Position numbers and translations under genes: made by a program. From the IMG/VR virus record IMGVR_UViG_3300010316_000005, positions 32,001-96,000 of that record: a stretch of 64,000 nucleotides of DNA; one strand, written 5' to 3'. Every line of letters begins with the position of its first letter. The stretch's first letter is position 1. This stretch comes from a virus. This document shows positions 49,275-64,000 of the stretch, piece by piece. Below the pieces are notes generated by a model. The model ran no database searches. It was not told the origin of the DNA and worked only from the letters and a program-made list of their open reading frames with translations.

Positions 49275-49329
49275 GATATCTTTTAAAAGGCATAAATACT
49301 TATAACAACGAATTCTAGGAGTTATAAGT

Positions 49330-50463
49330 ATGCCATTACGTCTGAGACGCGGAACCGATGCAGTTCGTCAAACGATTACCCCAGCTGAGGGCGAATTAAT
49401 TTATGTTACCGATACCGTAGAAGTATGGGTAGGTGATGGTGCTACGCCGGGTGGGATATTTGTAACCGGCGAAGTACCTCGATTCATTGACGATTTAAAC
49501 GATGTTGATACCTCAATTGGTGTTAGTGTAAACGATTTTCTTGCATGGGACGGCGTAAACTTTATACCAATCAACATCTTTGGTGTAGCGAACAATGAAA
49601 CATTTCAACTCAACATCGAAGATAATAATAACAACTTAGTAGTTGATTTTGCCAGTTCGAGCCACTACGGTACATTTATAGGTGTCCTACAAGGTGACGT
49701 AGTAGGATCAGTCTTTTCAGATAATTCAACAAGAATTATCAACGGAGAAACAGGATCAATCGAAGCATCGATTATTGAGCCGCCAGGTAACCTTAACATC
49801 AACAGTTCGCTAGGCGGACAAACTCGAGTAGAAATTAACAGCCAAGACAACCGCTCTATTCTTAAATTAACTAGAAACACTGCGTCTGATCTAACCGGTG
49901 ACCTTGTGTCACAGTACGGTGCTATTCACTTTGAAAGAGATGATATAAATGGACCATTGGTTACTGGAGTAATTTTTGGTAGAGAAGATTCGATTGTATT
50001 CGGAAACAGCGCAGATGGAGTATTAGCGACTGAAGACAAATATTTTGTCTGGAAGAATAACAAGTTTGGCATCGGCGTTGGTGCACCAACAGAAGCACTA
50101 GATGTAGCAGGTAACGCAAATATTTCAGGTACGTTAGTAGCGGCGGCATTACAAGGCACACTAACACTAGACGATTCAACTATTGTTATTGACGGAATTA
50201 CTGGTAATATTACATCGCCGGGAATTGTATCAGGTGCATCATTGCAAGGTACGCTAACACTAGACGATTCAACTATTGTTATTGACGGTATTGACGGTAG
50301 CATTATTGCTCCGAGTTATGTACAGTTTGGTAGCTTTACAACAACCGAACGTAACTTGCTAGTAGCAGCAAATGGCATGGTAGTTTACAACACTACAACT
50401 AATAAGTTTAACGGTTATCAGAATGGTGCGTGGATCAATATAGACGACGGTTCGGCGGCATAA
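49330..50463 (+). CDS. Tail fibre / Mtd-N-terminus-like virion protein
   Basis: LRLRRGT...PAEGELIYVTDT...GDG; late motif; internal repeat. Confidence 0.7.
   Translation: MPLRLRRGTDAVRQTITPAEGELIYVTDTVEVWVGDGATPGGIFVTGEVPRFIDDLNDVDTSIGVSVNDFLAWDGVNFIPINIFGVANNETFQLNIEDNNNNLVVDFASSSHYGTFIGVLQGDVVGSVFSDNSTRIINGETGSIEASIIEPPGNLNINSSLGGQTRVEINSQDNRSILKLTRNTASDLTGDLVSQYGAIHFERDDINGPLVTGVIFGREDSIVFGNSADGVLATEDKYFVWKNNKFGIGVGAPTEALDVAGNANISGTLVAAALQGTLTLDDSTIVIDGITGNITSPGIVSGASLQGTLTLDDSTIVIDGIDGSIIAPSYVQFGSFTTTERNLLVAANGMVVYNTTTNKFNGYQNGAWINIDDGSAA
50161..50288 (+). repeat. 35-bp exact direct repeat, 93-nt period, in tail-fibre gene
   Basis: CTAACACTAGACGATTCAACTATTGTTATTGACGG at 50161-50195 and 50254-50288. 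Confidence 0.9.
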
Positions 50464-50484
50464 TAAAATAAAGGAAATATTCTT

Positions 50485-50970
50485 CTGTCACTTATAATTA
50501 AAAAAATTGGTGAGGTTGATTTAGACTTATTAAAGTCAGAACTTTCAGTATTATTAGAAAGCACTGACTCTAGTCCTCAACAAACTAGTTTTCAAGGATT
50601 TGCCGAAGGCGACTTTAACGGCGCAAATGGAAAAACAACAGAGCTTGCTGGCAGCGAGACTGACTGTACAGCAATACTATTTCCAGACAGCTATGATTAT
50701 TTGTATTCATTAATAGATGAATACAAAATGTATCGTACTAGATTAATGCTATTGCCAGATAAAAGAAACTATAGCTGGCATTTAGATTACTCTGCCAGAC
50801 TACATATTCCCCTTATCACTAACGAAAGTTGTTTCTTCATTATAGAAGAACAGAAGTATTATCTGCCCGCAGACGGAAGTGTGTATTGGGTAGATACTAC
50901 TAAGTGGCATACGTTTGTTAATGCTAATAGAAATGAATTTATGCGTTCTCACATTGTAGGATGTATATAA
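50485..50970 (+). CDS. Asp/Asn beta-hydroxylase-like Fe(II)/2OG oxygenase, probable CTG start
   Basis: YSWHLD..RLHIPL...HTFVN..R.H; frame open from 50467 and aligns with paralog N-terminus. Confidence 0.7.
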   Translation: MSLIIKKIGEVDLDLLKSELSVLLESTDSSPQQTSFQGFAEGDFNGANGKTTELAGSETDCTAILFPDSYDYLYSLIDEYKMYRTRLMLLPDKRNYSWHLDYSARLHIPLITNESCFFIIEEQKYYLPADGSVYWVDTTKWHTFVNANRNEFMRSHIVGCI

Positions 50971-51476
50971 TGTGGCCAATAAAAAGAATAGGCGAAATTG
51001 ATTTAGATCGATTAATGGACGAGATCGGTCATATTGAAAAGCCTAAAGAAGGACCTAGACAATACCCCTTTCAAAAAAAGGAAGGCATAGAAGCAGAAGC
51101 TGCCAAAGGCACAAACTTTGTACTAAGAACAGACGAGTTTGATTTTAACACCCTAATACATCCAAAATTTAAATACATAAATTCAATTATCAACAAGTAC
51201 GATATGTTCAGAACTCGTAAAATGTGGATGCACGAAAAGTTCGTGTATGCGTGGCACGTTGATAATAGTCCAAGAATCCATATACCGTTATACACTAACG
51301 AGAATTGTATGTGGATTATTGAAGAGTGTGTTTATAGAATCCCAGCAGATGGCGGAGTATATCTTGTAGATACTACTGTGCCTCATACGTTTTTAAATGC
51401 TAACGCTGATCCGTTTTTGAGAACTCACATAGTAGGAGCAACTACTATACCGATATCACAGGATCGTTCTTCATAG
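50970..51476 (+). CDS. Asp/Asn beta-hydroxylase-like Fe(II)/2OG oxygenase
   Basis: YAWHVD..RIHIPL...PHTFLN..R.H. Confidence 0.75.
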   Translation: MWPIKRIGEIDLDRLMDEIGHIEKPKEGPRQYPFQKKEGIEAEAAKGTNFVLRTDEFDFNTLIHPKFKYINSIINKYDMFRTRKMWMHEKFVYAWHVDNSPRIHIPLYTNENCMWIIEECVYRIPADGGVYLVDTTVPHTFLNANADPFLRTHIVGATTIPISQDRSS

Positions 51477-51897
51477 GATCACCGACTGTCATTCCGGGCC
51501 TTCGGTGATCGTTTCTGACTACTTGTAATATCACATTGCTCGATAAAATGTATTCAAATAGCTCTGCTTTTTCTTGTTCAGATAATGTTTGTTCTTTGCG
51601 CGTGTATGGTTTGTCAAAGTTGCTTAAAAAATACGTTTCGTCTACTTTAGAATCAAATTCTTGTCGTGCTGCTTTTGAATCCCATATTTGATATAGCGTA
51701 AATTTGTTGCCGTCGATTACTTTAGCACGGATAATAAGTTTGCCGGTGTCTCTTGCGTGTCTGTACGCAGTACCGTAATTTTTCCAAAAGTTTTCGTCGG
51801 GCAATAAGCTTTGAAACCTTTTAGATTTGTTTGTTAAATAATCCTGGAAGAAATCGCCGTGTTCAGTTTCAAACGTCGTTAGCCAATATTCTTTCAT
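51445..51897 (-). CDS. Hypothetical protein, possible dimeric alpha/beta barrel
   Basis: FTLYQIWDSKAARQEF resembles ABM-type pattern. Confidence 0.45.
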   Translation of the reverse strand: MKEYWLTTFETEHGDFFQDYLTNKSKRFQSLLPDENFWKNYGTAYRHARDTGKLIIRAKVIDGNKFTLYQIWDSKAARQEFDSKVDETYFLSNFDKPYTRKEQTLSEQEKAELFEYILSSNVILQVVRNDHRRPGMTVGDPMKNDPVISV

Positions 51898-53233
51898 TTT
51901 CTTTTTCCAATTTACGGAGTATGAGCGTCTCTTGCTGTGCTATACGCTTATCTCCTTTTAACCCGATTTCTTGCGACAGTTCAGTAACTTGCTTCCAACG
52001 TTCGTACCGCTTTGCGTATGTTAGTTCTCCGTCTTTTGTCCAACTGCGCCATAATTGAACATCTCCATGCCAACGTTCTTTATCTTCGTATATTTCTGTG
52101 TCGGGCATTAGCATCGCTATATTAGTACGAACCTCAACATAATTTTTGTAAGGCTCAGACTTACGCAACAGCTCTAGTGTATCTTCAAAGTCTTCTTCTG
52201 TTTCTGTAGGATATCCTACAATAAGCAAATACAACATATCGATCTTGCGCTTTCCTAATGCTTCGATGCTAGTATACATATCAGTGTTATTAAACTTTTT
52301 CTTCATATGCCAGCGGACGTTTTCACTGCCACTTTCAATTCCAATCCACAAGCCTTTACAACCGCTTGCTGCTACGTTATCCCAATCTTCATCAGTCATT
52401 CCGCTACGGAAAATAAACTGGCCTCTCCATTCAATTGGCAGATTTGCCTTAGCAAGTGCTTTACAGAATACCCTAAACTCTTTCATTGACCCGTTAACTA
52501 AGCTATCACTGAAGTGAAATTTGTTAACTCCGTAGGTGTGATACTGGTGTATCATTTCGTTAGCAACATCAGTGCCTGGCCTAAATTTGTACTTCTTCCA
52601 ATTAGCGTGTACGTCACAGAACGTACACTGTCTTACACAGCCTCTTGACCCTGTAACAATAAGCGTAGGTTTGCTGTATAAGCTAAAGTCAATGTCGCTA
52701 TAATCAGGTATTGGCATATTTGATAAATCATCCATTTGAGGGAATCGATGTGGCTCGCCTCGTATCAGCGCAGGTAATGATCTATCTCCTTCTCCAGATA
52801 GTGCGTGGTCTGCTAATCCATCATTAATCATTTGTTGACCAAAGTTTATTTGGAGTACCTTCAAGTCACTATGATTATTAGTAAGTCCTGACCCGCCTAA
52901 TACAATTTTAGCGTCTGACATTTCTCGAATGACACTAAGAAACAACTTAGTAAATATTTGACTGTTGAGCGTAAACACACTACATCCGATCCATTCATAA
53001 TCAACTAACTGCTTACAGTATTCTTTGATAAACTCACCGTATGCCGGAAGATAGTTGTCTCCCGTTTCGCACCATGCCACTGCGTCATCGCCAAACTCTG
53101 TAAGAAATGCATGATTTAAATCATAGCAAGTACTATCAATACCTTCACGATTTAGTACTCCTTTTAGGAATACAATGCTAGGGGCAGGATGCCAATAGTT
53201 TTGACTCGGCATTGAAAGTAATGCTATACTCAT
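51869..53233 (-). CDS. B12-binding-domain radical SAM protein
   Basis: N-terminal B12-like domain (IVLGG, GEGD), SRGCVRQCTFC, GIESGS, VGYPTET. Confidence 0.85.
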   Translation of the reverse strand: MSIALLSMPSQNYWHPAPSIVFLKGVLNREGIDSTCYDLNHAFLTEFGDDAVAWCETGDNYLPAYGEFIKEYCKQLVDYEWIGCSVFTLNSQIFTKLFLSVIREMSDAKIVLGGSGLTNNHSDLKVLQINFGQQMINDGLADHALSGEGDRSLPALIRGEPHRFPQMDDLSNMPIPDYSDIDFSLYSKPTLIVTGSRGCVRQCTFCDVHANWKKYKFRPGTDVANEMIHQYHTYGVNKFHFSDSLVNGSMKEFRVFCKALAKANLPIEWRGQFIFRSGMTDEDWDNVAASGCKGLWIGIESGSENVRWHMKKKFNNTDMYTSIEALGKRKIDMLYLLIVGYPTETEEDFEDTLELLRKSEPYKNYVEVRTNIAMLMPDTEIYEDKERWHGDVQLWRSWTKDGELTYAKRYERWKQVTELSQEIGLKGDKRIAQQETLILRKLEKENERILANDV

Positions 53234-54018
53234 ATTGTCTGCCAAGGTTGCAACAAAGTTTTTCTCCACAATAGTCGTTCTCTGGAATCTTTAATTGTGC
53301 CGCGATAATGTAAGTTAACCCAGTTATCTAGTATTAGCAAATCACCGTTGTTCCAGTTATGCCGATGTAAGTATTTATACGTCATCATAGAGTTAAACCA
53401 ACTAGAAATTTCATCGTCTAATACCAAATCTCTGTTAGGCTTTTGTATTGCCATAGTAAAACTAAATCTAGGAGCAGGTACACCTTCGTCTGGCGCTAGA
53501 CCAAACACCTTGCTATCTACTCTCATTGCGCCCCAATAAAAGCTTTCTTTTCCTGTTATAGGATGTGTTTTAATAAAACTGCTCCAGAATGGTTGACATC
53601 CGTTCTTATAATCTTGTGTTAGAACTTGCAAGCTACGCAAGTACTCTTTAGTATCGTCGGGCTGATCTTCAAACCATTTTGTTATATTAAGAAAGTATAT
53701 CTCACCATCATTAGGATCTGGTATATCTACTGCGTAGAAAGCTCTTAACGGAAATCTGTATTTTTCGTGCCACGGGTTATCGGCGTGCCAGGGTATACTC
53801 ATACTGCCAAATCTTGTCTTGCTAGACCAGTCGACTACTTGGTCTTCGTTTAAAGTTTCGGTGTGAATCTTGTGAATTTCAGCCGACCAAGGTGTTGTTA
53901 CACTAGAGCAGAATTCAAAAAACTCTTGCTTGGTTAGATTAACGTTAGCCTGGTGCCAGAACCCTTTTTCGCGGGCAATATCAACTATTTCTTGTGGTGT
54001 ATTTAAAATATGGGTCAA
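53230..54018 (-). CDS. TauD/TfdA-family dioxygenase
   Basis: WHAD, HPITGK, W..GDLLILDNWVNLH.R, RLLWR. Confidence 0.85.
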   Translation of the reverse strand: MTHILNTPQEIVDIAREKGFWHQANVNLTKQEFFEFCSSVTTPWSAEIHKIHTETLNEDQVVDWSSKTRFGSMSIPWHADNPWHEKYRFPLRAFYAVDIPDPNDGEIYFLNITKWFEDQPDDTKEYLRSLQVLTQDYKNGCQPFWSSFIKTHPITGKESFYWGAMRVDSKVFGLAPDEGVPAPRFSFTMAIQKPNRDLVLDDEISSWFNSMMTYKYLHRHNWNNGDLLILDNWVNLHYRGTIKDSRERLLWRKTLLQPWQTI

Positions 54019-54655
54019 CCCATTCCTCCTCGATCCAGTCTGGCCTGCTTACTTTCATTTCGAATAAACTTTCTTCGATTAATTTTTTATATGCGTTAGT
54101 ATCTTCGCCATGCCACGGGGCTCCTACGCATAGTGTAATCTTTTCTTCTTTGCCGGGATCTAAGCTATGTGGATGACTGCCATCTAATACATAGCTGTTA
54201 TACAAACTAGGCACATATACCTTTTTACCGTTGCGGTCTAGGAAGTACAGCTTGTCTATTTCTCCTGCTAGCGCAATCCTAAATTTGTGCTGTCTAGTGC
54301 CTACTTCGTTAGCGTTAGTATCAAGATGCGTGTTCAGCCCATGACCAGCTTGTGTGCGCAGTACATTAAGTCTCCCGGCTGGCATCATCCAGCTGAATAT
54401 CTTCTCTTCAAATATCTTTATGCTGTTAGTTAGGTACGGCTCGGCATCAGTGTACTTAAATTTACCCGAGGTAGTATCACCTGTTTCTTCGCGTTGCCCT
54501 CTAACGCCGCCACCGTTATAGATAGGCAATATTCGGCAACCTCTGAAACTGTTGTCTTGGTAAAGTTCAAAAGGGACAGATAATACTTCATTTAATATAG
54601 TATCTTTATCTTGCTGAGTTAGACCTATATCAATTGCGCAAAATGTAAAGTCCAT
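53981..54655 (-). CDS. Fe(II)/2OG cupin oxygenase
   Basis: LNTHLD...HPHS. Confidence 0.65.
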   Translation of the reverse strand: MDFTFCAIDIGLTQQDKDTILNEVLSVPFELYQDNSFRGCRILPIYNGGGVRGQREETGDTTSGKFKYTDAEPYLTNSIKIFEEKIFSWMMPAGRLNVLRTQAGHGLNTHLDTNANEVGTRQHKFRIALAGEIDKLYFLDRNGKKVYVPSLYNSYVLDGSHPHSLDPGKEEKITLCVGAPWHGEDTNAYKKLIEESLFEMKVSRPDWIEEEWVDPYFKYTTRNS

Positions 54656-55288
54656 CTACCATTTCCTTTCAACTGATTCCCACGGAACTGGGTCATCAAA
54701 TAGCTGAAATCTATTTCCGCTCTGATAAGTTTCTACTAATTTATGCCAAGGAACAACTGTCATATGTGTTTTTAGTATAAGTCTCTCTGTGGGCTCATCA
54801 TTAAAAACAGCATGTGGTCTGTTTACATTCAAGAAACAAGGATTGATGTATTCGTGTCTTGTAATTTCTGTTTTGTTATCTTGGAATAGTGCTATTTCAG
54901 TTTTTCCCTTTAAAGGAATGTTAAACGCCGATAGAGCAAGCAAGTTGTAGTTTACGTGTGGCATAAAGTATCCACCCGGTGGTTGACCTAAAAATGTAAA
55001 TTTGATAACATGTTTTATTTGTTCCCAATTAATATAAACATCACTTTTTTCGGCAATGTTTTTTACTCTAGCATATACTTCACGCCAAAGATTCATATTA
55101 CAATCGTAACATAAATGGTGTACTATTTGATCGTCTTGATCTCTTTTTAGAACATCGTGAGAATTATCAAATTTAGATCGTACCTTTGTTTCGTAAAATT
55201 CTAACAGTTCAGCTTTATCTGCTTCAAAACCATTATATCCCTGTGTTTCAGCAAAACGATCTTCAAATCTATAACGTAATTGCTTCAT
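54656..55288 (-). CDS. Cupin oxygenase-like protein with HxN motif
   Basis: MPHVN...FNIPL...RPHAVFN...R. Confidence 0.6.
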   Translation of the reverse strand: MKQLRYRFEDRFAETQGYNGFEADKAELLEFYETKVRSKFDNSHDVLKRDQDDQIVHHLCYDCNMNLWREVYARVKNIAEKSDVYINWEQIKHVIKFTFLGQPPGGYFMPHVNYNLLALSAFNIPLKGKTEIALFQDNKTEITRHEYINPCFLNVNRPHAVFNDEPTERLILKTHMTVVPWHKLVETYQSGNRFQLFDDPVPWESVERKW

Positions 55289-56134
55289 TTAAAATATCCT
55301 TCTATAATCAAAAGAAAGTCTGTATAACAACCTGTCTCCTTCGACGGCATTGCGCTTATGAATACTATGAAACTGATCCATGAATACAAAGTCACCAGTT
55401 TGCCAATCGTTGTGATGATATATATATTTTTCCTGAAATACGTGTTTCATCAAATAGTCACGCAACCAAGTTTCATCTAATAATACTCCATCTCGCCTTG
55501 ACATTTGCTGGATGTAATGAAAAACAAAATACAAGCCTCTTTCCTTAGTCCAAGGATGCGTATACACCAACGGCTTTGTTACGCCGTCTACAAAAGCAGG
55601 ATGCTGTTCGAAAATTTGCAGTTCTCTGTCATCTTCATCTAAATCATAGAAGGATCCGTTTTTGAACTTAAACAAGCACTCAACTTGATCTACTATCTCC
55701 TTTATATCAGTAGGAAGATCAGTGTATGCGCGGCGAGTATCACAGAAGCTAGTTATGCTGCCTGTACCCGGCTTTACACAATACAGTGCTACACAGGCTT
55801 CTTTGCCACTAGGGCGACCGTTTCCGTTAGAGTGCCAGTCTAACTCTTTGTCAGCAAACAATCCTGTCTTTTCACCATCCTTGCGCTCATTGGTTACCCT
55901 AAACAATCCGGGATATTCCGGATGCATAAAGAATTGATCCGGCTTCATACAATGCCCAATAGCTTCGCAAACTTCTAGCACTTTGCTTTCATGAAGCTTC
56001 TGGTTACGTACTAATATTACATTATCAACTGGAATATGTCTACCAAATTCTTGTAGTTCATCTGTTGACATTGCATTAAAATCAACATCGTATTCTACGC
56101 CAACGCCTGGCAAATCTCTAACTTTTTTCATCAT
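55289..56134 (-). CDS. TauD/TfdA-family dioxygenase with HxN motif
   Basis: LDWHSN, T.FCDT..AY..LP, HPWT, W..GDFVFMDQ..SIH.R. Confidence 0.8.
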   Translation of the reverse strand: MMKKVRDLPGVGVEYDVDFNAMSTDELQEFGRHIPVDNVILVRNQKLHESKVLEVCEAIGHCMKPDQFFMHPEYPGLFRVTNERKDGEKTGLFADKELDWHSNGNGRPSGKEACVALYCVKPGTGSITSFCDTRRAYTDLPTDIKEIVDQVECLFKFKNGSFYDLDEDDRELQIFEQHPAFVDGVTKPLVYTHPWTKERGLYFVFHYIQQMSRRDGVLLDETWLRDYLMKHVFQEKYIYHHNDWQTGDFVFMDQFHSIHKRNAVEGDRLLYRLSFDYRRIF

Positions 56135-56793
56135 AGCTTAATCTGATCCTGTAAATCTGTTCTTAAATTGTCAAAGTGAAATCCAAGTATAGCAACGCGG
56201 CGGATTGCTTTGTCGTCGTTAACTACTGTATGATTCCAGCCCGTATTAACAAACCAAAGTTCTTTTGGTTTCATTTTAAACTCGTGTACACCTTCTTTAT
56301 CTCTAAAAAGAAAGGTACTGTTATTTTCATTTAAGCAAATTTGTGCTCTGCATATAACACTAGTGTCAGCGTCGATGTGCCAGTTAAGTTTATGATCTGG
56401 TTGCATTTCACTTAGTCTAAATCTGTACACATCGCTAAAGAAGCTTTTCATTTCTTCTTGTACTATTTCGGAGTTTGCTGCCCACTTTGAATACAAATAC
56501 TCATCCATATTATTTTGATTTATCGCAGGGTTAGTTTGCATAATTACTTGTCTATACGATTGACCTACGTTAAATACCTTTTCGTAATCGCAGCCTCGAC
56601 TGATAGCGTAATCGTCGCCACCTATATCGCTTTGTTGATTGTTATCTAAAAACTTGTTTAGGTAATCAAACACTTCGTCTGACACTTCTCCGAGCTTAGA
56701 AAAGACCTGTAGCTTGTTGCGCCTCGGGCCAGTGCCTCCGACTCTTGTTCTTTTTGTTTGCTCTACTAAACATACTTTGTCTTCATTACTCAT
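56131..56793 (-). CDS. Asp/Asn beta-hydroxylase-like oxygenase
   Basis: LNWHID...NTGWNHTVVN..R. Confidence 0.7.
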   Translation of the reverse strand: MSNEDKVCLVEQTKRTRVGGTGPRRNKLQVFSKLGEVSDEVFDYLNKFLDNNQQSDIGGDDYAISRGCDYEKVFNVGQSYRQVIMQTNPAINQNNMDEYLYSKWAANSEIVQEEMKSFFSDVYRFRLSEMQPDHKLNWHIDADTSVICRAQICLNENNSTFLFRDKEGVHEFKMKPKELWFVNTGWNHTVVNDDKAIRRVAILGFHFDNLRTDLQDQIKL

Positions 56794-57341
56794 AATTTCT
56801 TCCAATCGCTTATGGGCATACTGTTTAACTCTAATTCTTTACCATTGTAGATTACATTCTGCCAGCAATTTTTATCCCCAGGGGTCGCGCAAGTCTGTAT
56901 CATTTCTGGATGAAGAATCCATTCGCCTTCTAATTTTTGTGCATATCTTGCTAACGAATTGCGTCTCTTTAAGTCTTGCATAGATATAAAAACTGTCTTG
57001 TACTGTTGTATATATTCTAACTGTCGTGGCAGAATATACAAACTTGGACTGAACCTTTTGTCGTGTGCCGGTAACGTAAATCTTCTATAGTCGGGATATA
57101 TGTAAGTTCGCGTTAGCAGTCTATAACAACCTTCGTAAAATTCCTGTATAGTAGCAAACGCTGCTAATTTATCGTTGTCAAGTAAAAAGAACCATTCAGC
57201 AAACTTTGTATTGTAGCACTTTTCTAAATGCGCAAACCAATCACTGTTTCGTGCATCGCCCGCGTGCTGCGCGGCATCGAGCAACTTTAATTCATTTAAA
57301 AAACGTTCCTCACCAAATTCTGATAGCGTGACTACTTTCAT
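56790..57341 (-). CDS. GNAT-like acyltransferase
   Basis: LAAFATI...RLLTRTYIYPDYR. Confidence 0.45.
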   Translation of the reverse strand: MKVVTLSEFGEERFLNELKLLDAAQHAGDARNSDWFAHLEKCYNTKFAEWFFLLDNDKLAAFATIQEFYEGCYRLLTRTYIYPDYRRFTLPAHDKRFSPSLYILPRQLEYIQQYKTVFISMQDLKRRNSLARYAQKLEGEWILHPEMIQTCATPGDKNCWQNVIYNGKELELNSMPISDWKKL

Positions 57342-58051
57342 TGCTTGATTATTCCTATAAACCTAGCAGTAGGATCAAACTCGTACCACTTGCGTCCAAT
57401 GCGATAATCGCCGCCTCTATCGTGGTGATTAGCGTGCCAACCTTCTCCGGCGGTTAACATATTAGCAACCCAAGAATTGCTAGGCTTGCCATTTTTATGC
57501 CCAAGAACATTTAACAAGCTGTATCCGTGAAACGCAAACACAACAGGAACAGCGTACCCGAATATCAAAAGCAATGGATTAATCGCAGCAAGAATTAGAA
57601 TGATTGCAATATTCAGCTTAAAGTAATGCTGATAGAACCAACGAAGTAATTTGTCTCTTAATAAGCTCTTTATAAATTTACGTTCTATGTGGGCAGTATA
57701 TCCCCAAGTGTTAAAATAGACTGTTAACAGTCCTTTTATAGCAAACGAGTGAGGGTCTTTATCAGTATCGCTATATGCGTGATGCTGTAGATGGGTTCCT
57801 GCCCAGGTTAACACGGGGCCAGCGCCGCTGAACATTCCTAGAATGTTAACAACGTAGGGATACCATCTTCCTGTTTTAAAACTTCTATGACTATAGTATC
57901 TGTGATAGCCGCCGCTTATTGATACAATGGCAATTACATACCACCATAACAGAGCAGCAATAAACATCCACCATTCTCCGTACATAAAAGCAGGGATCAA
58001 CATTAGATGACAAAATATGTGATTTAGCAGTAGTTTAGAGGTATTGTTCAT
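57338..58051 (-). CDS. Delta-9-type fatty acid desaturase
   Basis: His boxes GYHRYYSH, HLQHH..SD...DPH, GEGWHANHH. Confidence 0.9.
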   Translation of the reverse strand: MNNTSKLLLNHIFCHLMLIPAFMYGEWWMFIAALLWWYVIAIVSISGGYHRYYSHRSFKTGRWYPYVVNILGMFSGAGPVLTWAGTHLQHHAYSDTDKDPHSFAIKGLLTVYFNTWGYTAHIERKFIKSLLRDKLLRWFYQHYFKLNIAIILILAAINPLLLIFGYAVPVVFAFHGYSLLNVLGHKNGKPSNSWVANMLTAGEGWHANHHDRGGDYRIGRKWYEFDPTARFIGIIKQ

Positions 58052-58535
58052 TTACTAATCCTAAGATTTGGTCTACTGCGTTTTCTACAGCGATATAATC
58101 TTCAAGGTTTGGATATTTCTGTAATATTTTGTCAGTACCTACATATCCAAAGCTTATGTACTTTATGCGTACTGTCTTATTTAGTTTAGCTAAGTCATCG
58201 GAGAGCATCTTCAAGGTTTTCTTATACATTTGGTATTCTAGCAGGTGTTGATAATCATCAGGAAGATTTTCAGTACGCTCTGCTATCCTGCTTCCTATAT
58301 TGATTATAGTTTTATTTGTATTTTGATATTTTTTAAAAAAGTCCAGCAGCAATAATGTTTGGCCAATACTGCAATATGCGTTATTAATCAAAATATCAGG
58401 TTCAGTTGAAAGTAACTTTTTTCGGTCAAGGCGGTGTTGAATATTATACCCGTTGGCTCTACTAAACCCGTTGCACTTGATGCGGTCGTAAATGCATTTT
58501 CCAATTCCGCTAGTATGGCCTGTGACTGCAATCAT
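58035..58535 (-). CDS. Short SDR-like oxidoreductase
   Basis: VTGHTSGIG, LINNA, INIGS, YQMYK. Confidence 0.75.
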   Translation of the reverse strand: MIAVTGHTSGIGKCIYDRIKCNGFSRANGYNIQHRLDRKKLLSTEPDILINNAYCSIGQTLLLLDFFKKYQNTNKTIINIGSRIAERTENLPDDYQHLLEYQMYKKTLKMLSDDLAKLNKTVRIKYISFGYVGTDKILQKYPNLEDYIAVENAVDQILGLVNEQYL

Positions 58536-59737
58536 TTGTAGTATTCCTTGAATTCTGGAAAAACGTCGAGTAAGTTTGTATTTCTGATTTCGTCAAGCTT
58601 TTTTGTAAATTTAATAAATCTTTCAAATTCCATAGCCGAGCTTTGCGGCTTAGTTAGTATTTCCATAGTATTGTCTAACCCCGGAAGATTTCCGTATTCA
58701 AAATTTGAATACTTCTCTATATACTCTTGCTTGATCTTGTCTGGTAAATTTAATGCGTTGTAAATTTTAGGATTAGTAACTAGATTATTCCAGCCTGCAC
58801 TCGAGGTATACGTTACCAAGGACTTAATGTAATCGTGTATTTCGTCTAAGTATCCAATGTTTAAGCACTGTACTGCAATAGTAAACACTACTTTAACATC
58901 AGACGCGATTGCACGTCTAAGATTTTCATCAAATGTTTCCCACACTAATCCACTTCTGATATATTCGGCTCTTTTGCCAACGCCGTCTATGCTGAAATTT
59001 AATATAACTTTTCTAAACTTGTGCGCGTTGTCTAGCACCTTTTGTGGTAGTACCGTTCCGTTTGTTATTACAAACAATTCAAGATTGTTTACGTTCTTAC
59101 TAGATAGCAGCATATCAAATATCTCATCAAAGTCTGGGTGAACAAATGCTTCGCCGCCGATGAGACTAAACCTATCAATGCTTTCTAAAATAACAGAAAC
59201 ATCATTGAAATAGTTTTCTTTGGAATTACTAGTATACGCTGTTTTGATAGATTTGTCAACCTCGGCTATGCCGTGCTTCTTATATTCTGCTGCTATCTTC
59301 GACGACGAGTTTGGGTTACACATTATGCATTTGAGATTACATATATTTCCCAATATTTTTAAATTAACATACTGTAGATCCTCGGCTGCTATCTCGTTGC
59401 TATCAGCGTTTAAGAATTTTTCTAAAGTCTTAAACGTGCTTTCATTTTGATATTTGACGTTTTGATTTTGGCGGCGCGACTGAATACCGTTCTCTTCAGT
59501 GAATATGCAAGACTTACAGGTACGACGAATATCTTCAGAAATGTTTCCATCTATCATATCCCGCCGCATTGTCTTCATATAATCAGAATTCATATATTCT
59601 AACGGAGACATAAAGTCAGTTGATCGATTAGATGCTTTATCAGGTAATGCAATACAGCACGGAGTATAATACCCGTCAGTAGTATGAGATAGATTTATAA
59701 AAGGCTCAACACACCACGGCATTTTTTTATTAGTCAA
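58532..59737 (-). CDS. Radical SAM protein with N-terminal twitch/SPASM-like Cys cluster
   Basis: WC..PF...PCC; CNLKCIMC; GGE; TNG; SIDG. Confidence 0.85.
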   Translation of the reverse strand: MTNKKMPWCVEPFINLSHTTDGYYTPCCIALPDKASNRSTDFMSPLEYMNSDYMKTMRRDMIDGNISEDIRRTCKSCIFTEENGIQSRRQNQNVKYQNESTFKTLEKFLNADSNEIAAEDLQYVNLKILGNICNLKCIMCNPNSSSKIAAEYKKHGIAEVDKSIKTAYTSNSKENYFNDVSVILESIDRFSLIGGEAFVHPDFDEIFDMLLSSKNVNNLELFVITNGTVLPQKVLDNAHKFRKVILNFSIDGVGKRAEYIRSGLVWETFDENLRRAIASDVKVVFTIAVQCLNIGYLDEIHDYIKSLVTYTSSAGWNNLVTNPKIYNALNLPDKIKQEYIEKYSNFEYGNLPGLDNTMEILTKPQSSAMEFERFIKFTKKLDEIRNTNLLDVFPEFKEYYK

Positions 59738-60620
59738 TTTCTACTCTTTCCATAGTGCTGTATTCACATAATGCATCGATGATCTCAGTAGGTGTCATTT
59801 CGTTGTTGACTAGCATTGCTACTGGAATATTTCCCATTGCGTTCTTAGGATCATCTTTAACAAATCCTAGCGCACCTAGATAGTTGTGATTTTGAATCCA
59901 CCATTCGTCCATTCCATCTAAAAATCGTCGAACGCTTTCGTTTCCTCTAGAATGAAAATATGCAGTAAAGTCCGAGCTGTAATATCTAAGTGGACGTATG
60001 TTATCTTCCCCGACTACATCGTCGCCGTCCTTGTATACATCATATAGTGGCTTCCCGACTTCGCAATAATTGATATAAACTTCGCCAAACTTTCTCAACA
60101 ATGTAAAATGTTCATAGTCAGCGTCAATCATATCATATCTCTTCCTATTAGCAAATCTACAAACAATCCTAGGAAAATGCTTTTCTTGGGTAGTGTTATG
60201 ATAGAAGTTTTCAGCTCTGTGTATAATTACGTTGTATCTTTCCAACGCATCCCTAACTTGTAAATTTGACCTATGCCAAAAGTCAGTAGGCGACAATACG
60301 CCGCCACGCAAGTTTTCAAAGTAGTGATGAAGATGATTAAGCTGCTCTTGCGGCATTCCTACAAACGCCCTATGATATACAACTTCTTCTTGCGAGTTAA
60401 GAACATCAATACAATCATTTAGTTCTTGTACTAATCTTTCTTCAGTCCACACTCCATTAGGAAAGTTATACAAGCGGTCCTTTTCAGCAATCTCATTATT
60501 ATTATTGCATTGTTCTACTAACGCCCGGTGCCAACGAGTTGCTATATCAGTTCCGTAGACTTGATACTGTAACTTAAATTCTTCTTTACTAGAGTTTGAA
60601 AACACTATCGAAAATATCAT
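59730..60620 (-). CDS. Hypothetical protein
   Basis: LNHLHHYFE, N..IH..E, VYINY..VGK. Confidence 0.6.
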   Translation of the reverse strand: MIFSIVFSNSSKEEFKLQYQVYGTDIATRWHRALVEQCNNNNEIAEKDRLYNFPNGVWTEERLVQELNDCIDVLNSQEEVVYHRAFVGMPQEQLNHLHHYFENLRGGVLSPTDFWHRSNLQVRDALERYNVIIHRAENFYHNTTQEKHFPRIVCRFANRKRYDMIDADYEHFTLLRKFGEVYINYCEVGKPLYDVYKDGDDVVGEDNIRPLRYYSSDFTAYFHSRGNESVRRFLDGMDEWWIQNHNYLGALGFVKDDPKNAMGNIPVAMLVNNEMTPTEIIDALCEYSTMERVEID

Positions 60621-61741
60621 TAATTGCTGTTCCTTAGAACTTTTGTATTACCCAGTTGCGTGTTCCAATTACTATGTTTTGTACACTGAGTCGCACAGCT
60701 ATCAAACGGATTTTTTGTCGTCCATGATTTTTCTATTTCTAAAAACAAGTCAGACTCAATAACATCCTTGATTTCATTCTTAATTATATTGTTAAAGTCT
60801 AATGGATAGTTTTTCTGTTTATAGAATTGAGAAGAAAAGGATCCAGGAACCATATTTAACAGACTGTTCTGAGCATCAAATGACACCCAGCAGCAAGGCC
60901 AAAGTCTGCCATCAGCTGACAAATAAACAGAACTTTGTTTCGTTACCTGACAACTAACTTTGCTCGGTGCTGTAACAATTTTATCATCAGGCAACAGTGA
61001 TACTTCGGACTTACTAACGCAGTTAGCATCATATGATTCTTTCTGGTATCTCTGCTTAGGCAAATGACTAAAGCGATCTGCTATCTTTGAAGATGGTTCC
61101 AGTCGATATGATTCTTGTTTATTTTTATCCACTATTATGTAATCTCGGTTCCCATTCCACCGAACTGACGGACGTTCTTTAAATTTTTTAAATCCGTATT
61201 CTAAAGACAAAGCTTTGCATTCGTCAACTTGATGTTCATTATGCTTAAATACTGTCATTGCCCAACTTGCATTGCCGCCTGTGTCAATGAATGACTTTGC
61301 GTTTTTCATAACAGTATCAAATCTAGTATTTCTTCGATACAAGTGATGTGTGTCAGCAAGTCCGTCTATGCCAAATTCTACTTCAACGTTTTTAAAAGAG
61401 CCAAGCCATTTCCAAAATTCAACACCGAGTGCGCCACCATTGGTTCGAATTTCTACTTTAACCTTAAACTTTAAAATAGCGTCAATCAAGGCTTTAGGAT
61501 TTGAGTGCATAACTATGTCGCCGAAATTTCCGTTAATTAAAACGTTCTCTAAGTTTTTAAAGTATTCATTTTTTAAGATCCTCTTAATTTGCTTCGGCGT
61601 CCATTCTTTGATTTCTAAATTAGGATGAGTCTCTAATGTAGCAGTAAGAGTTCGGGGGCATTGCGGGCAGCGGGCATTACAGTCACTAGTTGGTTCTAAG
61701 TGAAGGTGGCGCGGAGTATCTTTATAGATTCCATTAATCAT
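60620..61741 (-). CDS. Radical SAM protein with C-terminal SPASM/twitch domain
   Basis: CNARCPQC, GNFGD, TNG, GIDG, C...WPCC...C..QC. Confidence 0.85.
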   Translation of the reverse strand: MINGIYKDTPRHLHLEPTSDCNARCPQCPRTLTATLETHPNLEIKEWTPKQIKRILKNEYFKNLENVLINGNFGDIVMHSNPKALIDAILKFKVKVEIRTNGGALGVEFWKWLGSFKNVEVEFGIDGLADTHHLYRRNTRFDTVMKNAKSFIDTGGNASWAMTVFKHNEHQVDECKALSLEYGFKKFKERPSVRWNGNRDYIIVDKNKQESYRLEPSSKIADRFSHLPKQRYQKESYDANCVSKSEVSLLPDDKIVTAPSKVSCQVTKQSSVYLSADGRLWPCCWVSFDAQNSLLNMVPGSFSSQFYKQKNYPLDFNNIIKNEIKDVIESDLFLEIEKSWTTKNPFDSCATQCTKHSNWNTQLGNTKVLRNSN

Positions 61742-61877
61742 CTTTTATCTGCTCTATGTCAATTCTTTGAGGAGTACAGTGATGGCAAGAGTAACTCAAT
61801 CCTGTATCAAGTCTGAGATTAGTACGATACCATTTTGCCAAGCAAAAAGATGGGCTTACGTGATTTAGTTTCTTCAT
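61734..61877 (-). pseudogene. 47-aa Cys/His ORF, probably truncated N-terminus of another radical SAM
   Basis: MKKLNHVSPSFCLAKW...DTGLSYSCHHC; ATGA-coupled; spacing parallels N-terminus of 58532 ORF. Confidence 0.55.
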
Positions 61878-62791
61878 TTAATTCCTATTTTCATGTATCT
61901 AGTATATTTATCAAGCGGTAGTTCGCCTAGATATAAACATTCACTCATAGTAACTTGTTTATCAAATTGTTCTTTACTACTAACACAGTTTACGTGTTCT
62001 TCAACTTCGTAATAGTTGTTTGATTGAAGAACAACCGTTGTACCTGTTGGTATTTTATTATACCATTCATCAAAGTTTTCGATGTGTTCGCAACTGGTGT
62101 TAATAACAGTATCTGGACAATCTGTTACAGGATAACTCATCCTATTGTTAGTCTTACTCCATTCTTGCCAAGTATGTCTACTATAATCAATATTCATAAT
62201 GTCTTCTGTAATACTCTTAAATTTCCAATCATCAATGAACCAGGGTTTATTAAATATTTCTGCAATCTTCGCGCACGACGGATCGATGTCAAAGCTACGA
62301 ATATTTCCTACTTTTATTCCGGACTCAAAAATCATAGTTGCTAGAGTACCGTACCATCCTGCACACAAAAACACTGTGCCGAGGTCTAAATTTAACTTTT
62401 TCAACTCACTAACTAACCAAAGCTTACTGTATAACTGGCCACGACTAAAACAGTCGTTATCAAACTCAACCTCATTCACAAATAAGCTCTTAAGAGCAGC
62501 AACAAACTGAGTGTTAGTATAGCTTGTCAACACAGGCCATAATTTCCAAACGTTATCTTCCATTACTAGCTTGCGCAAGTCATCGTCATCAAATAACCTA
62601 AAAATGCTGTGTAAGTTTTGATCCATTACTGCTTTGCGTAAGTCTTCGGCATTGCCCTGTACTGTGCTAGGCATCAGTCTAAAAATACTAGAAAGGTCTT
62701 TGTCTATGTATGCGCGTCTTAGATCAGACAACTTGCTGTTAGTTGGATACAGTAATTCAAATCTATCTAAGATTTCATAAGTCTCTAGCAT
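61874..62791 (-). CDS. Class I SAM-dependent methyltransferase-like protein
   Basis: LCAGWYG, SFDID, INTSCEH; three N-terminal DLR repeats. Confidence 0.7.
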   Translation of the reverse strand: MLETYEILDRFELLYPTNSKLSDLRRAYIDKDLSSIFRLMPSTVQGNAEDLRKAVMDQNLHSIFRLFDDDDLRKLVMEDNVWKLWPVLTSYTNTQFVAALKSLFVNEVEFDNDCFSRGQLYSKLWLVSELKKLNLDLGTVFLCAGWYGTLATMIFESGIKVGNIRSFDIDPSCAKIAEIFNKPWFIDDWKFKSITEDIMNIDYSRHTWQEWSKTNNRMSYPVTDCPDTVINTSCEHIENFDEWYNKIPTGTTVVLQSNNYYEVEEHVNCVSSKEQFDKQVTMSECLYLGELPLDKYTRYMKIGIK

Positions 62792-63800
62792 TAAATTTTT
62801 CCTTTAACCAAGCAAAGTCGTTTATCTTTACTAATTCAGATGTGTTACCTCTAAATGTTGCCCCAAAATGTGCGCCTTGCTTCGCTCCATCAATCGCATA
62901 CTTTCCGAATTGTCCTCGATTTACAGTACACCAAGTACGAAGTCTATGATTTGTTTCGTCATCATTTTGCCGGTCGATAACCTTTGAGCTGAGTTTACAA
63001 CACTCTCTAAAGGCGCTGCGCCAAGTACTGTACGGGTCTGTATTAAAAGCTGTGATGTTTGATATTTCATTTACTGCAATAAATTTACTAGAAACGCTAG
63101 TGGTCATATCAGGCTTCGATGTATCCATATTAATAGTCATTAGACGCGGAAACAGCTTGATTCCACCGTACCCATATACCAAACCATTAATAGGGTTCTG
63201 GCTGCGCCAAACGTGAACATGGTCTTGTTGATGAGACGGCACTATATAGTCAAAGTTGAAATCATCAACAATTACTGCGTCAGCATCAATAACCCAGAAC
63301 ATGTTAGTATTGGCCATTTCAGCAGCTTTGATATGAGCTTGATGAATCCCTGTAACGCCGTGTACACGTAACACCTTTGTAAATCTGTCTACTAATGCCT
63401 GATAATTTTCATCAGCGTTAGGCTCATCGTATGATATAAACACCTTGTCATACGGAGGGGTTATTGATGCAGTTATGTCAATTTGTTTTTGATCAACAAA
63501 GTTCTTCTTTTTCCATTCTTCTTCTGTAATAGGATAGGACTTACTTATTAAGCACACGCCGTCGTAAGAAGTGTCATTGTGTAAGAATTGATGAACATAC
63601 TTTTGGTCGTACGTTTCAACTTGGTACGAGAAATCAAAGCTATCTAATATTTCTAGGTCAGGTGGTATTGCCCAAAACATTTTAGTAAATGATTTTCTTT
63701 TTGCTTCCGTAATTGTAGCTGCATGTTTAGCAGCTACAAATCTTTGTTTAATCTGTTCCCAAGACTTATTTTTTTCACCAATAAAAATGATATCATACAT
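62775..63800 (-). CDS. Glycosyltransferase-like (GT-A) protein with internal duplication
   Basis: FISYDE...FWVIDAD...YGGIKL; degenerate first copy. Confidence 0.55.
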   Translation of the reverse strand: MYDIIFIGEKNKSWEQIKQRFVAAKHAATITEAKRKSFTKMFWAIPPDLEILDSFDFSYQVETYDQKYVHQFLHNDTSYDGVCLISKSYPITEEEWKKKNFVDQKQIDITASITPPYDKVFISYDEPNADENYQALVDRFTKVLRVHGVTGIHQAHIKAAEMANTNMFWVIDADAVIVDDFNFDYIVPSHQQDHVHVWRSQNPINGLVYGYGGIKLFPRLMTINMDTSKPDMTTSVSSKFIAVNEISNITAFNTDPYSTWRSAFRECCKLSSKVIDRQNDDETNHRLRTWCTVNRGQFGKYAIDGAKQGAHFGATFRGNTSELVKINDFAWLKEKFNARDL

Positions 63801-63820
63801 ACTTTATTATAACACCTATT

Positions 63821-64000
63821 TTATTGTTGTCTAGTATTTCCGTAGTGAATTACTTCGCATTTATCGTTGACGTAGTTTCTCCAAGGATCGATCACTACAC
63901 TGCCGTCGGGGATATTACAGTACAATGTATCAACATCACTTTGTCCAGTATACTTGTAGGTTGTGCTAGCACTATGAGCAAGCAAGAAGATTGCTGGCTT
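63821..64000 (-). CDS. C-terminus of UDP-glucose/GDP-mannose dehydrogenase-like protein (partial)
   Basis: GSVVIDPWR...VIHYG at C-terminus. Confidence 0.5.
   Translation of the reverse strand, partial: KPAIFLLAHSASTTYKYTGQSDVDTLYCNIPDGSVVIDPWRNYVNDKCEVIHYGNTRQQ

Follow-up and report, generated by a model that had tools for sequence, protein, structure and literature searches.

We analysed a 64,000-nt stretch of viral DNA (the window), bases 32001–96000 of the 175.7-kb linear IMG/VR contig IMGVR_UViG_3300010316_000005, which is rated 49% complete. From position 50485 to its end, the window is packed with genes for oxygenases, radical S-adenosylmethionine (SAM) enzymes and other tailoring proteins, and this stretch is the fibre-proximal half of an island of ~30 kb that has fibre genes on both sides. 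The reading we favour, with about an even chance of being right, is that the island encodes a pathway, working in the cytoplasm of the infected cell, by which an unusual sugar decoration is assembled and chemically altered. The gene families, their coupling, their conservation as modules and their counterpart in a bacterium can be seen directly in the comparisons below.

An island between fibre genes of a jumbo phage

The contig carries a T4-type gp23 major capsid gene (contig positions 163618–164580, 332 bits) and a family-B, T4-family DNA polymerase gene whose product is nearest those of the jumbo phages Phosso, Atu_ph07 and the Rak2 group (42–50% identity). The source is therefore an uncultured T4-like phage, a jumbo relative of roughly 350 kb. 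Metagenomes of several studies, labelled aquatic, seawater or freshwater, contain near-identical DNA. No cultured phage matched the block in a near-identity DNA search, and a PHROGs search of eight window genes lacking a function returned no match.

Sixteen open reading frames (ORFs) make up a minus-strand array (51445–63800) in which every junction abuts or overlaps by 0 to 40 nt, leaving no intergenic gap. The array converges on a plus-strand unit consisting of the tail-fibre-type gene tf377 followed by asp160 and asp171. An earlier note on this DNA, made by a model from the sequence alone, had described such tight coupling facing a tail-fibre gene, and in this it was right. It had placed the end of the cluster at 64000, however, and the cluster in fact runs on for ~17 kb, up to fibre-like genes. 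Beyond the window, the minus strand carries a nucleotide-sugar dehydrogenase gene with intein-like elements, a further N-terminal-twitch (N_Twi) radical SAM gene (NTwi482) and more glycosyltransferase (GT)-like genes, namely u311, a paralogue of the window gene gt341; u281 and u285, a DxD pair; and u369 and u413, which have a common C-terminal domain. A short plus-strand block comprises a DegT-like gene, a GDSL-like gene and three unassigned ORFs. Two fibre-like genes with tail-fibre C-terminal similarity, u487 and u488, mark the far end.

The C-terminal piece of the dehydrogenase gene (63821–64000, minus strand) runs off the window, and the sugar dehydrogenase of the earlier note is thus accounted for. 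The complete gene (window-equivalent 63821–67421; L001 1821–5421) is in pieces: a 710-aa ORF with an insertion and an intein-like end, a 269-aa endonuclease-like ORF and the 205-aa C-terminal piece. As that note also observed, there is no scaffold synthase; the cluster contains no nonribosomal peptide synthetase, polyketide synthase, precursor peptide or carrier protein. The scaffold is probably made by soluble GT-A/GT8-like glycosyltransferases and the products of the sugar-nucleotide genes, most of which are encoded past the end of the window. The island has no gene for a flippase, polymerase, ligase or polyprenyl-phosphate transferase, and membrane segments are seen in the desaturase alone.

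A widespread core of glycosyltransferase and radical SAM genes

The gene gt341 (62775–63800, minus strand) encodes a glycosyltransferase of GT-A fold. Its AlphaFold2 model (predicted local distance difference test score, pLDDT, 89.5) gave only GT-A proteins as top PDB matches (E 2e-5 and probability 1.0, with a template modelling score of only about 0.3), and residues D172 and D174 of the DxD motif are invariant. Foldseek matches include LH3, polypeptide GalNAc-transferases, SunS/ThuS and mimivirus R699. For gt341, as for gnat183 described below, sequence and profile searches against solved structures came back empty, and both proteins are placed by fold comparison only. We found 308 viral relatives of gt341 and compared neighbourhoods in 80 fetched loci. 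The methyltransferase-like gene mt305 is adjacent in 77 of these, with SPASM and N_Twi radical SAM genes next in line, and upstream of gt341 the core loci have the run u119-u285-u281-u207-u311-NTwi482, matching this phage. The homologues themselves are between 222 aa (the catalytic domain alone) and 1407 aa long, differ in their N-terminal extensions and in places stand in tandem (L132:83–4306 and others).

For mt305 (61874–62791, minus strand), a class-I methyltransferase fold receives weak support from matches to spermidine synthase/methyltransferase folds at E 0.04 and from motifs read by eye. Hence, of the GT-like protein and methyltransferase originally proposed, the first is well placed by its fold and the second has these weak profile matches behind it. 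The N-terminal region of mt305 (62359–62662), which has a short internal repeat, is swapped for 230 other letters in the otherwise near-identical seawater contig X4 described below.

All three radical SAM genes of the window retain the CxxxCxxC motif. NTwi401 (58532–59737, minus strand) matches the N_Twi family model NF033640 with 310 bits against a cut-off of 170, over model positions 4–398, and the off-window NTwi482 is likewise a member (313 bits, same cut-off). We found no paper on this family, which has no characterised member. By contrast, spasm373 (60620–61741, minus strand), which combines a radical SAM core with a SPASM domain, scores 42 bits and is not a member; nor is the B12-type enzyme of the oxidative block. 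NTwi401 and spasm373 correspond to the two SPASM/twitch enzymes seen earlier. In the spasm373 protein the radical SAM core begins near residue 16, leaving no N-terminal peptide-recognition domain, and no gene gave a PqqD hit. The gene between them, u296 (59730–60620, minus strand; 296 aa), always adjoins a radical SAM gene in the loci compared; ESM Atlas yielded no usable fold for it.

Upstream of spasm373 lies a 47-aa ORF (61734–61877, minus strand) with the pattern FCxxxW...CxxC, similar to the Cys-rich N-terminal end of twitch radical SAM enzymes. A seawater contig (X4) that is 99.8% identical over 50259–61746 carries ~1.1 kb extra exactly at 61737–61746, which suggests that an N_Twi radical SAM gene has been deleted and that the ORF is what remains of it. 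We also considered whether it might be a frameshifted N-terminus of spasm373 and rejected this, as spasm373 orthologues start directly at the radical SAM core. No precursor gene for a ribosomally synthesized and post-translationally modified peptide (RiPP) was seen in the array, which has no free intergenic space and in which this enzyme-like stub is the sole small ORF.

An accessory oxidative block and its conserved triad

Genes of the remaining part of the array (51445–58535), which we term the oxidative block, occur in only ~1/10 of core loci and are accessory to the core. The stretch is not a self-contained cluster; it joins part of a widespread core (58532–63800) to this accessory block. 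The block is itself a conserved unit: twelve genes are wholly collinear in six contigs, at 60–88% identity. In seven loci (L003, L005, L006, L008 and L040–42) the end of the block is again convergent to a tf377-type gene, and that gene is just 25–34% identical. The neighbourhood comparison proposed as a check on sub-block linkage therefore did reveal conserved linkage, and the refuting outcome that the note had named for it did not arise.

Three genes of the block form a translationally coupled triad. The first, desat237 (57338–58051, minus strand; Pfam 53.8 bits), encodes a membrane protein resembling delta-9-type fatty-acid desaturases, with three His boxes (HRYYSH, HLQHH and HANHH) and hydrophobic segments at 25, 143 and 162. 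The second, gnat183 (56790–57341, minus strand), has a GNAT fold (AlphaFold2 pLDDT 88), all top Foldseek matches being GNAT proteins. The third, asp224b (56131–56805, minus strand; 22.3 bits), encodes an AspH-like cupin. A desaturase search of viral contigs yielded 37 loci, and the order desaturase-GNAT-AspH-like, with 4-nt overlaps, is kept in ~30 of them at identities down to 40–58%. In ~25 loci the triad occurs without the rest of the block, once adjoining a class-3 lipase gene. In a distant 114-kb phage contig (L026 4455–12814), it is flanked by genes for a class-3 lipase, a carbamoyltransferase and a truncated UDP-sugar dehydrogenase. Next to the triad is a gene for a minimal short-chain dehydrogenase/reductase (SDR) of 166 aa (58035–58535, minus strand), which matches Pfam weakly and has TGxxxGxG, NNA, Ser and YxxxK all in place. 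The desaturase, SDR and GNAT-like assignments made before thus agree with the His boxes, catalytic motifs and predicted fold.

The radical SAM enzyme of the block (51869–53269, minus strand; 466 aa) matches Pfam Radical_SAM with 61 bits, carries the motif CVRQCTFC and has orthologues at 73–76% identity. Its top NCBIfam matches are all class-B/B12 (PhpK family, E 1e-30), far below the cut-offs, and Pfam detects no B12-binding domain. The protein described earlier as a B12-domain radical SAM is a radical SAM enzyme that is class-B-like by its best matches.

Seven Fe(II)/2-oxoglutarate (2OG) oxygenases had been proposed. Two TauD-family and three AspH-like proteins bear this out, a sixth is a probable member and the seventh is unproven. 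Of the TauD-family pair, TauD262 (53230–54018, minus strand) has the HxD motif as HAD, and TauD281 (55289–56134, minus strand) has HSN in its place, in 8/8 orthologues, with the distal His and Arg retained. The probable cupin oxygenase, cup224a (53981–54655, minus strand), was recognized with hhalign (E 6.6e-4) and shows HLD...HPH, with HxD and the distal His in register. For the possible cupin cup210 (54656–55288, minus strand), profile comparison gave E 0.02, which does not demonstrate cupin identity, and the carboxylate ligand is missing (HxN; HxA in orthologues). The HSN of TauD281 and the HxN/HxA of the cup210 family, in both of which the distal His is kept, may reflect altered metal ligation or loss of activity. 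The AspH-like family profile matches Cpz10 (E 1.4e-10 over ~130 residues), a 2OG hydroxylase of 182 aa whose substrate is a glycyl-uridine intermediate on the way to caprazamycin (PDB 7V4F; PMC9814697). The nearest solved relatives of TauD281 are TfdA, ScoE, TauD and AtsK. All five of these solved relatives act on small molecules, not proteins.

The last gene of the array, u150 (51445–51897, minus strand), encodes a conserved 150-aa protein with orthologues in 8 loci (39–61% identity) and a weakly matching bacterial counterpart. Across the block, catalytic motifs are intact and orthologues are conserved. In one metatranscriptome library, contigs match parts of tf377, asp160, the B12-type radical SAM gene, the TauD281/asp224b junction and the SDR gene at 100% identity, a weak hint that these genes are transcribed, with DNA carry-over a possible source; stretches without such coverage carry no information.

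Counterparts in cultured phages and bacteria

Two cultured phages carry related genes. Pelagibacter phage Mosig has, directly beside its fibres, genes for an AspH-like protein, a desaturase, a TauD protein, a methylase, an N-acetyltransferase, an aminotransferase, a carbamoyltransferase and a MoaA-like radical SAM enzyme. The Ralstonia jumbo phage RsoM2USA has the bare core (ORF354–347, all annotated hypothetical) in the order u119, two GT8-like genes, one ORF without a window match, u311, one N_Twi gene, gt341 and mt305, directly after virion proteins confirmed by mass spectrometry.

Among bacteria, relatives of gt341 and u311 are found mainly in Bdellovibrionota, complete chromosomes included, where they adjoin N_Twi and SPASM radical SAM genes and mt305-like genes. 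In Photorhabdus asymbiotica DSM 15149 (L169 8774–16294), a gene with a gt341-like catalytic domain lies in an operon with GT1, two GT2, nucleotidyltransferase, ABC exporter and HlyD genes (order: GT1, gt341-like, GT2, GT2, nucleotidyltransferase, exporter, HlyD), which looks like a locus for an exported glycoconjugate.

The most complete counterpart is a 47-kb island on a 349-kb contig of one bacterial genome (G001), ~7 kb from probable rpoBC and ~25 kb from a ribosomal S8 gene. It contains homologues of gt341, u311, mt305 and UDP-glucose dehydrogenase, three TauD, two AspH-like and one cup224a-like oxygenase genes, two desaturase genes, and radical SAM genes of the B12 type (two), N_Twi type (six) and SPASM type (six). 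A gnat183 homologue (hhalign 96%, E 1e-9) stands in the same desaturase-GNAT-AspH order. An initial scan of a genome collection with the gnat183 alignment and a HMMER search of G001 and 40 more genomes gave no match, a result that is uninformative, as the G001 homologue was missed too. The G001 island ends with genes for a membrane GT2 and a PMT_2/ArnT-like GT-C, an ArnC/ArnT-like pair, and the bacterial version appears to pass its product to envelope transferases. That a single bacterial island unites these families argues that their combination is no accident of a phage hypervariable region.

One caveat here is that some 'bacterial' matches are phage contigs binned into metagenome-assembled genomes (MAGs). 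One of these, a 'Neomarinimicrobiota' MAG (PBPT01000016.1, PBPT01000082.1; L137/L182/L207), includes a 335-kb contig with island genes and holds T4-type gp23 genes; this contig is most likely a complete, mis-binned jumbo phage genome.

The fibre-side unit and a shared promoter-like motif

The plus-strand unit begins with tf377 (49330–50463; 377 aa; Pfam Mtd_N, 31 bits). Downstream by 21 nt is asp160 (50485–50970), which encodes an AspH-like small cupin (22.7 bits against a cut-off of 22.6), and then its paralogue asp171 (50961–51476), with orthologues at 60–76% identity. The asp160 frame is open from 50467 and runs for 78 open codons without ATG, GTG or TTG. A AAAGGAAA box precedes CTG 50485, and the orthologue at L043:12303–12791 is 162 aa long and begins with TTG. 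The asp160 start is thus probably CTG 50485, and the start coordinate given before for the cluster is sensible.

The heptamer ATAAATA occurs 53 times in the contig, and 28 copies lie 0–60 nt upstream of a gene start, against an expectation of 3.4%, typically at a distance of 17–35 nt. It precedes tf377 (49292–49298, plus strand, 31 nt before the gene), the 47-aa stub (61905–61911, minus strand, 27 nt before the ORF), degT195, u308 and u487. The copy at the stub is likely the head of the run from 61877 down to 51445. We take ATAAATA to be probably the phage's general or late-type promoter core, given its place before both replication and fibre genes. That operon heads of the island and fibre genes have the motif in common is a hint on expression that we count in favour of the proposed sugar pathway.

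A putative pathway for an edited sugar

From these data we infer a substrate class, an order of steps and a target. The nucleotide-sugar dehydrogenase, DegT-like protein and six GT-like proteins of the same co-directional array, together with the GT-A fold of gt341, narrow the substrate class towards a sugar or sugar-nucleotide. Also in favour of the sugar reading we count the conserved core, its relatives in Bdellovibrionota and Photorhabdus, the G001 island, the small-molecule substrates of the nearest solved relatives, the confinement of membrane segments to the desaturase, and the cultured carriers. In such a pathway, the UDP-sugar dehydrogenase and the DegT-like protein would supply an amino-uronic type sugar, which the GNAT protein could N-acylate. 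The SDR, the three radical SAM enzymes and the seven Fe/2OG-type oxygenases might then reduce, C-methylate, dehydrogenate or epimerise, and hydroxylate this sugar, with mt305 as a candidate for its methylation. Soluble GT-A/GT8-like transferases would assemble and attach the decoration. The phage version lacks a membrane transferase as well as a flippase and a polymerase, which makes an acceptor of cytoplasmic origin most likely, and we slightly favour the neighbouring fibre proteins. The earlier note had allowed decoration of virion proteins or glycans, of envelope lipids or of a small molecule; the substrate class can now be narrowed as above.

Several points weigh against this sugar pathway. 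No phage or bacterium has yielded a measured product, substrate or acceptor, and the radical SAM and oxygenase families are uncharacterised, with none reaching an equivalog cut-off. A lipid would be a more natural substrate for a membrane desaturase than a sugar. Triad and core are also found apart and may not share a product. The enzymes (60–88% identity) are far more conserved than the adjoining fibre (25–34%), giving no sign of enzyme-fibre co-evolution. Finally, ATAAATA also precedes the DNA polymerase gene, so that the motif does not settle late timing.

A broader hypothesis, which we consider doubtful, is that phages and predatory-type bacteria share an undescribed pathway, combining N-terminal-twitch/SPASM radical SAM arrays, TauD/AspH oxygenases and the triad, whose product is a heavily edited sugar of a new class, perhaps higher-carbon or lipid-bearing, and that the phage puts this sugar on its fibres, tuning host recognition.

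Alternative explanations

The strongest of the alternatives, itself unlikely, is lipid remodelling, in which the oxidative block would act on host membrane or lipid A acyl chains, independently of the sugar genes: the desaturase would insert a double bond, enzymes like LpxO and OlsC, which are members of the AspH family, would hydroxylate acyl chains, and the GNAT protein would carry out an acyl transfer. The sole membrane protein of the island is a desaturase with delta-9-type His boxes, a kind of enzyme shown by experiment to act on lipids in cyanophages (PMC5776448). The loci where the triad stands alone, once beside a lipase gene, fit such a role. However, the AspH-like proteins of the island are small soluble ones whose closest solved relative, Cpz10, works on a nucleoside. 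In distant phages the triad adjoins UDP-sugar dehydrogenase and carbamoyltransferase genes, in G001 it lies inside a radical SAM/glycosyltransferase island, and the window has no further lipid-handling enzyme.

Next in order, and improbable, is a mosaic of unrelated cassettes in a hypervariable fibre-side region that make no common product. Island content does vary among close relatives, as seen in the ~1.1-kb indel, the segment swap in mt305 and the differing cassette sets between loci; populations that are 99.8% identical differ in the presence of a radical SAM gene. The modules are separable, RsoM2USA having the core alone and many contigs the triad alone, and the comparable host recognition cluster has been published as non-syntenic (PMC7029224). 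An assembly of chance neighbours is nevertheless hard to reconcile with 16 genes that leave no intergenic space, with the collinearity of the 12-gene block in six contigs at 60–88% identity, or with a bacterial chromosome in which this mix of families forms a cluster once more.

We give still less weight to modification of a protein or peptide, by analogy with collagen hydroxylysine glycosylation or proteusin maturation. In this scheme, AspH/TauD enzymes would hydroxylate, SPASM/B12 radical SAM enzymes would cross-link, epimerise or C-methylate, and GTs would glycosylate, a fibre protein or ribosomal peptide. Two AspH-like genes do follow the fibre gene in what is apparently one unit, the best-known AspH-family enzymes hydroxylate proteins, the SPASM enzymes match peptide maturases weakly, and the Foldseek matches of gt341 include the protein- and peptide-acting LH3, polypeptide GalNAc-transferases and SunS/ThuS. 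On the other hand, no small conserved precursor ORF, PqqD/RiPP recognition element domain, leader protease or exporter was seen, the nearest solved oxygenase relatives work on small molecules, and the fibre diverges without matching change in the enzymes.

Least probable of all is nucleotide chemistry, either hypermodification of phage DNA or a nucleoside-type metabolite akin to liponucleoside or tunicamycin-like compounds. Cpz10, the closest solved relative of the AspH-like family, belongs to caprazamycin biosynthesis, which also uses a TauD-family UMP dioxygenase, and the combination of GT, methyltransferase-like, radical SAM, SDR and GNAT genes with an unsaturated acyl group presumably resembles the tunicamycin gene set; yet the island sits among fibre genes rather than nucleotide-metabolism genes, shows no transaldolase, nucleotidyltransferase or DNA-base kinase, and has a bacterial counterpart that ends in ArnC/ArnT-like envelope transferases.

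Significance and comparison with known systems

Islands of this kind fill ~1/10 of the genome of abundant aquatic giant phages, and not one of their radical SAM enzymes or oxygenases has an assigned substrate. If they do decorate fibres or another surface, they would give ocean phages a further, new level at which host range is controlled, and new sugar chemistry could be drawn from them. The question is now testable in the cultured carriers Mosig and RsoM2USA, the latter with a minimal core of about eight genes and a single N_Twi radical SAM gene. Cultured Photorhabdus strains offer the glycosyltransferase in a simple operon, and one bacterial chromosome unites all modules.

Virus-encoded glycosylation decorates virion surface proteins in giant viruses, as exemplified by chlorovirus A064R, the mimivirus fibril sugar cluster and the mimivirus/LH3-type hydroxylase-glycosyltransferases. 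The island resembles this machinery in having a soluble cytoplasmic GT-A enzyme, a methyltransferase partner, an aminotransferase, an N-acyltransferase and sugar-nucleotide enzymes. The giant-virus clusters lack radical SAM genes and TauD/AspH arrays, however, and the likeness is one of fold only.

The cyanophage desaturases known as vFADs are delta-9 lipid desaturases by experiment (Roitman et al. 2018, PMC5776448). Like them, desat237 is a phage-borne membrane desaturase with three His boxes; unlike them, it is translationally coupled to a GNAT gene and an AspH-like gene. It has no match in cultured cyanophages at E 1e-5. The small AspH-like cupins are similar in size to Cpz10, their closest solved relative, which has a small-molecule substrate (PDB 7V4F; PMC9814697), whereas the rest of the caprazamycin pathway is not in the island.

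As a whole, the island is of an already published kind, the host recognition cluster of pelagimyophages. That cluster, like the hyperplastic region of cyanomyophages, is a large variable island that T4-like marine phages carry among their fibre genes (Zaragoza-Solas et al. 2020, PMC7029224). It has been suggested to modify the host O-chain and is described as non-syntenic (PMC7029224). Similar blocks of glycosyltransferase, DegT and radical SAM genes have been reported in large cyanomyophages in a recent paper. Common to the published cluster and the island are a T4-type core, a position among fibre genes, variable content and a mixture of GTs with other enzymes, and both have glycosyltransferases, UDP-glucose dehydrogenase, radical SAM cassettes and AspH-type hydroxylases. 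The present case differs in that the phage is a jumbo phage, the island has no membrane transferase or export enzyme, and the modules, radical SAM family, triad and bacterial counterpart are resolved. New here are the coupled triad shared with a bacterium, a single bacterial island that unites the modules and has an ArnC/ArnT-like end, the link to Cpz10, a radical SAM indel at the population level, and RsoM2USA and Photorhabdus as tractable systems.

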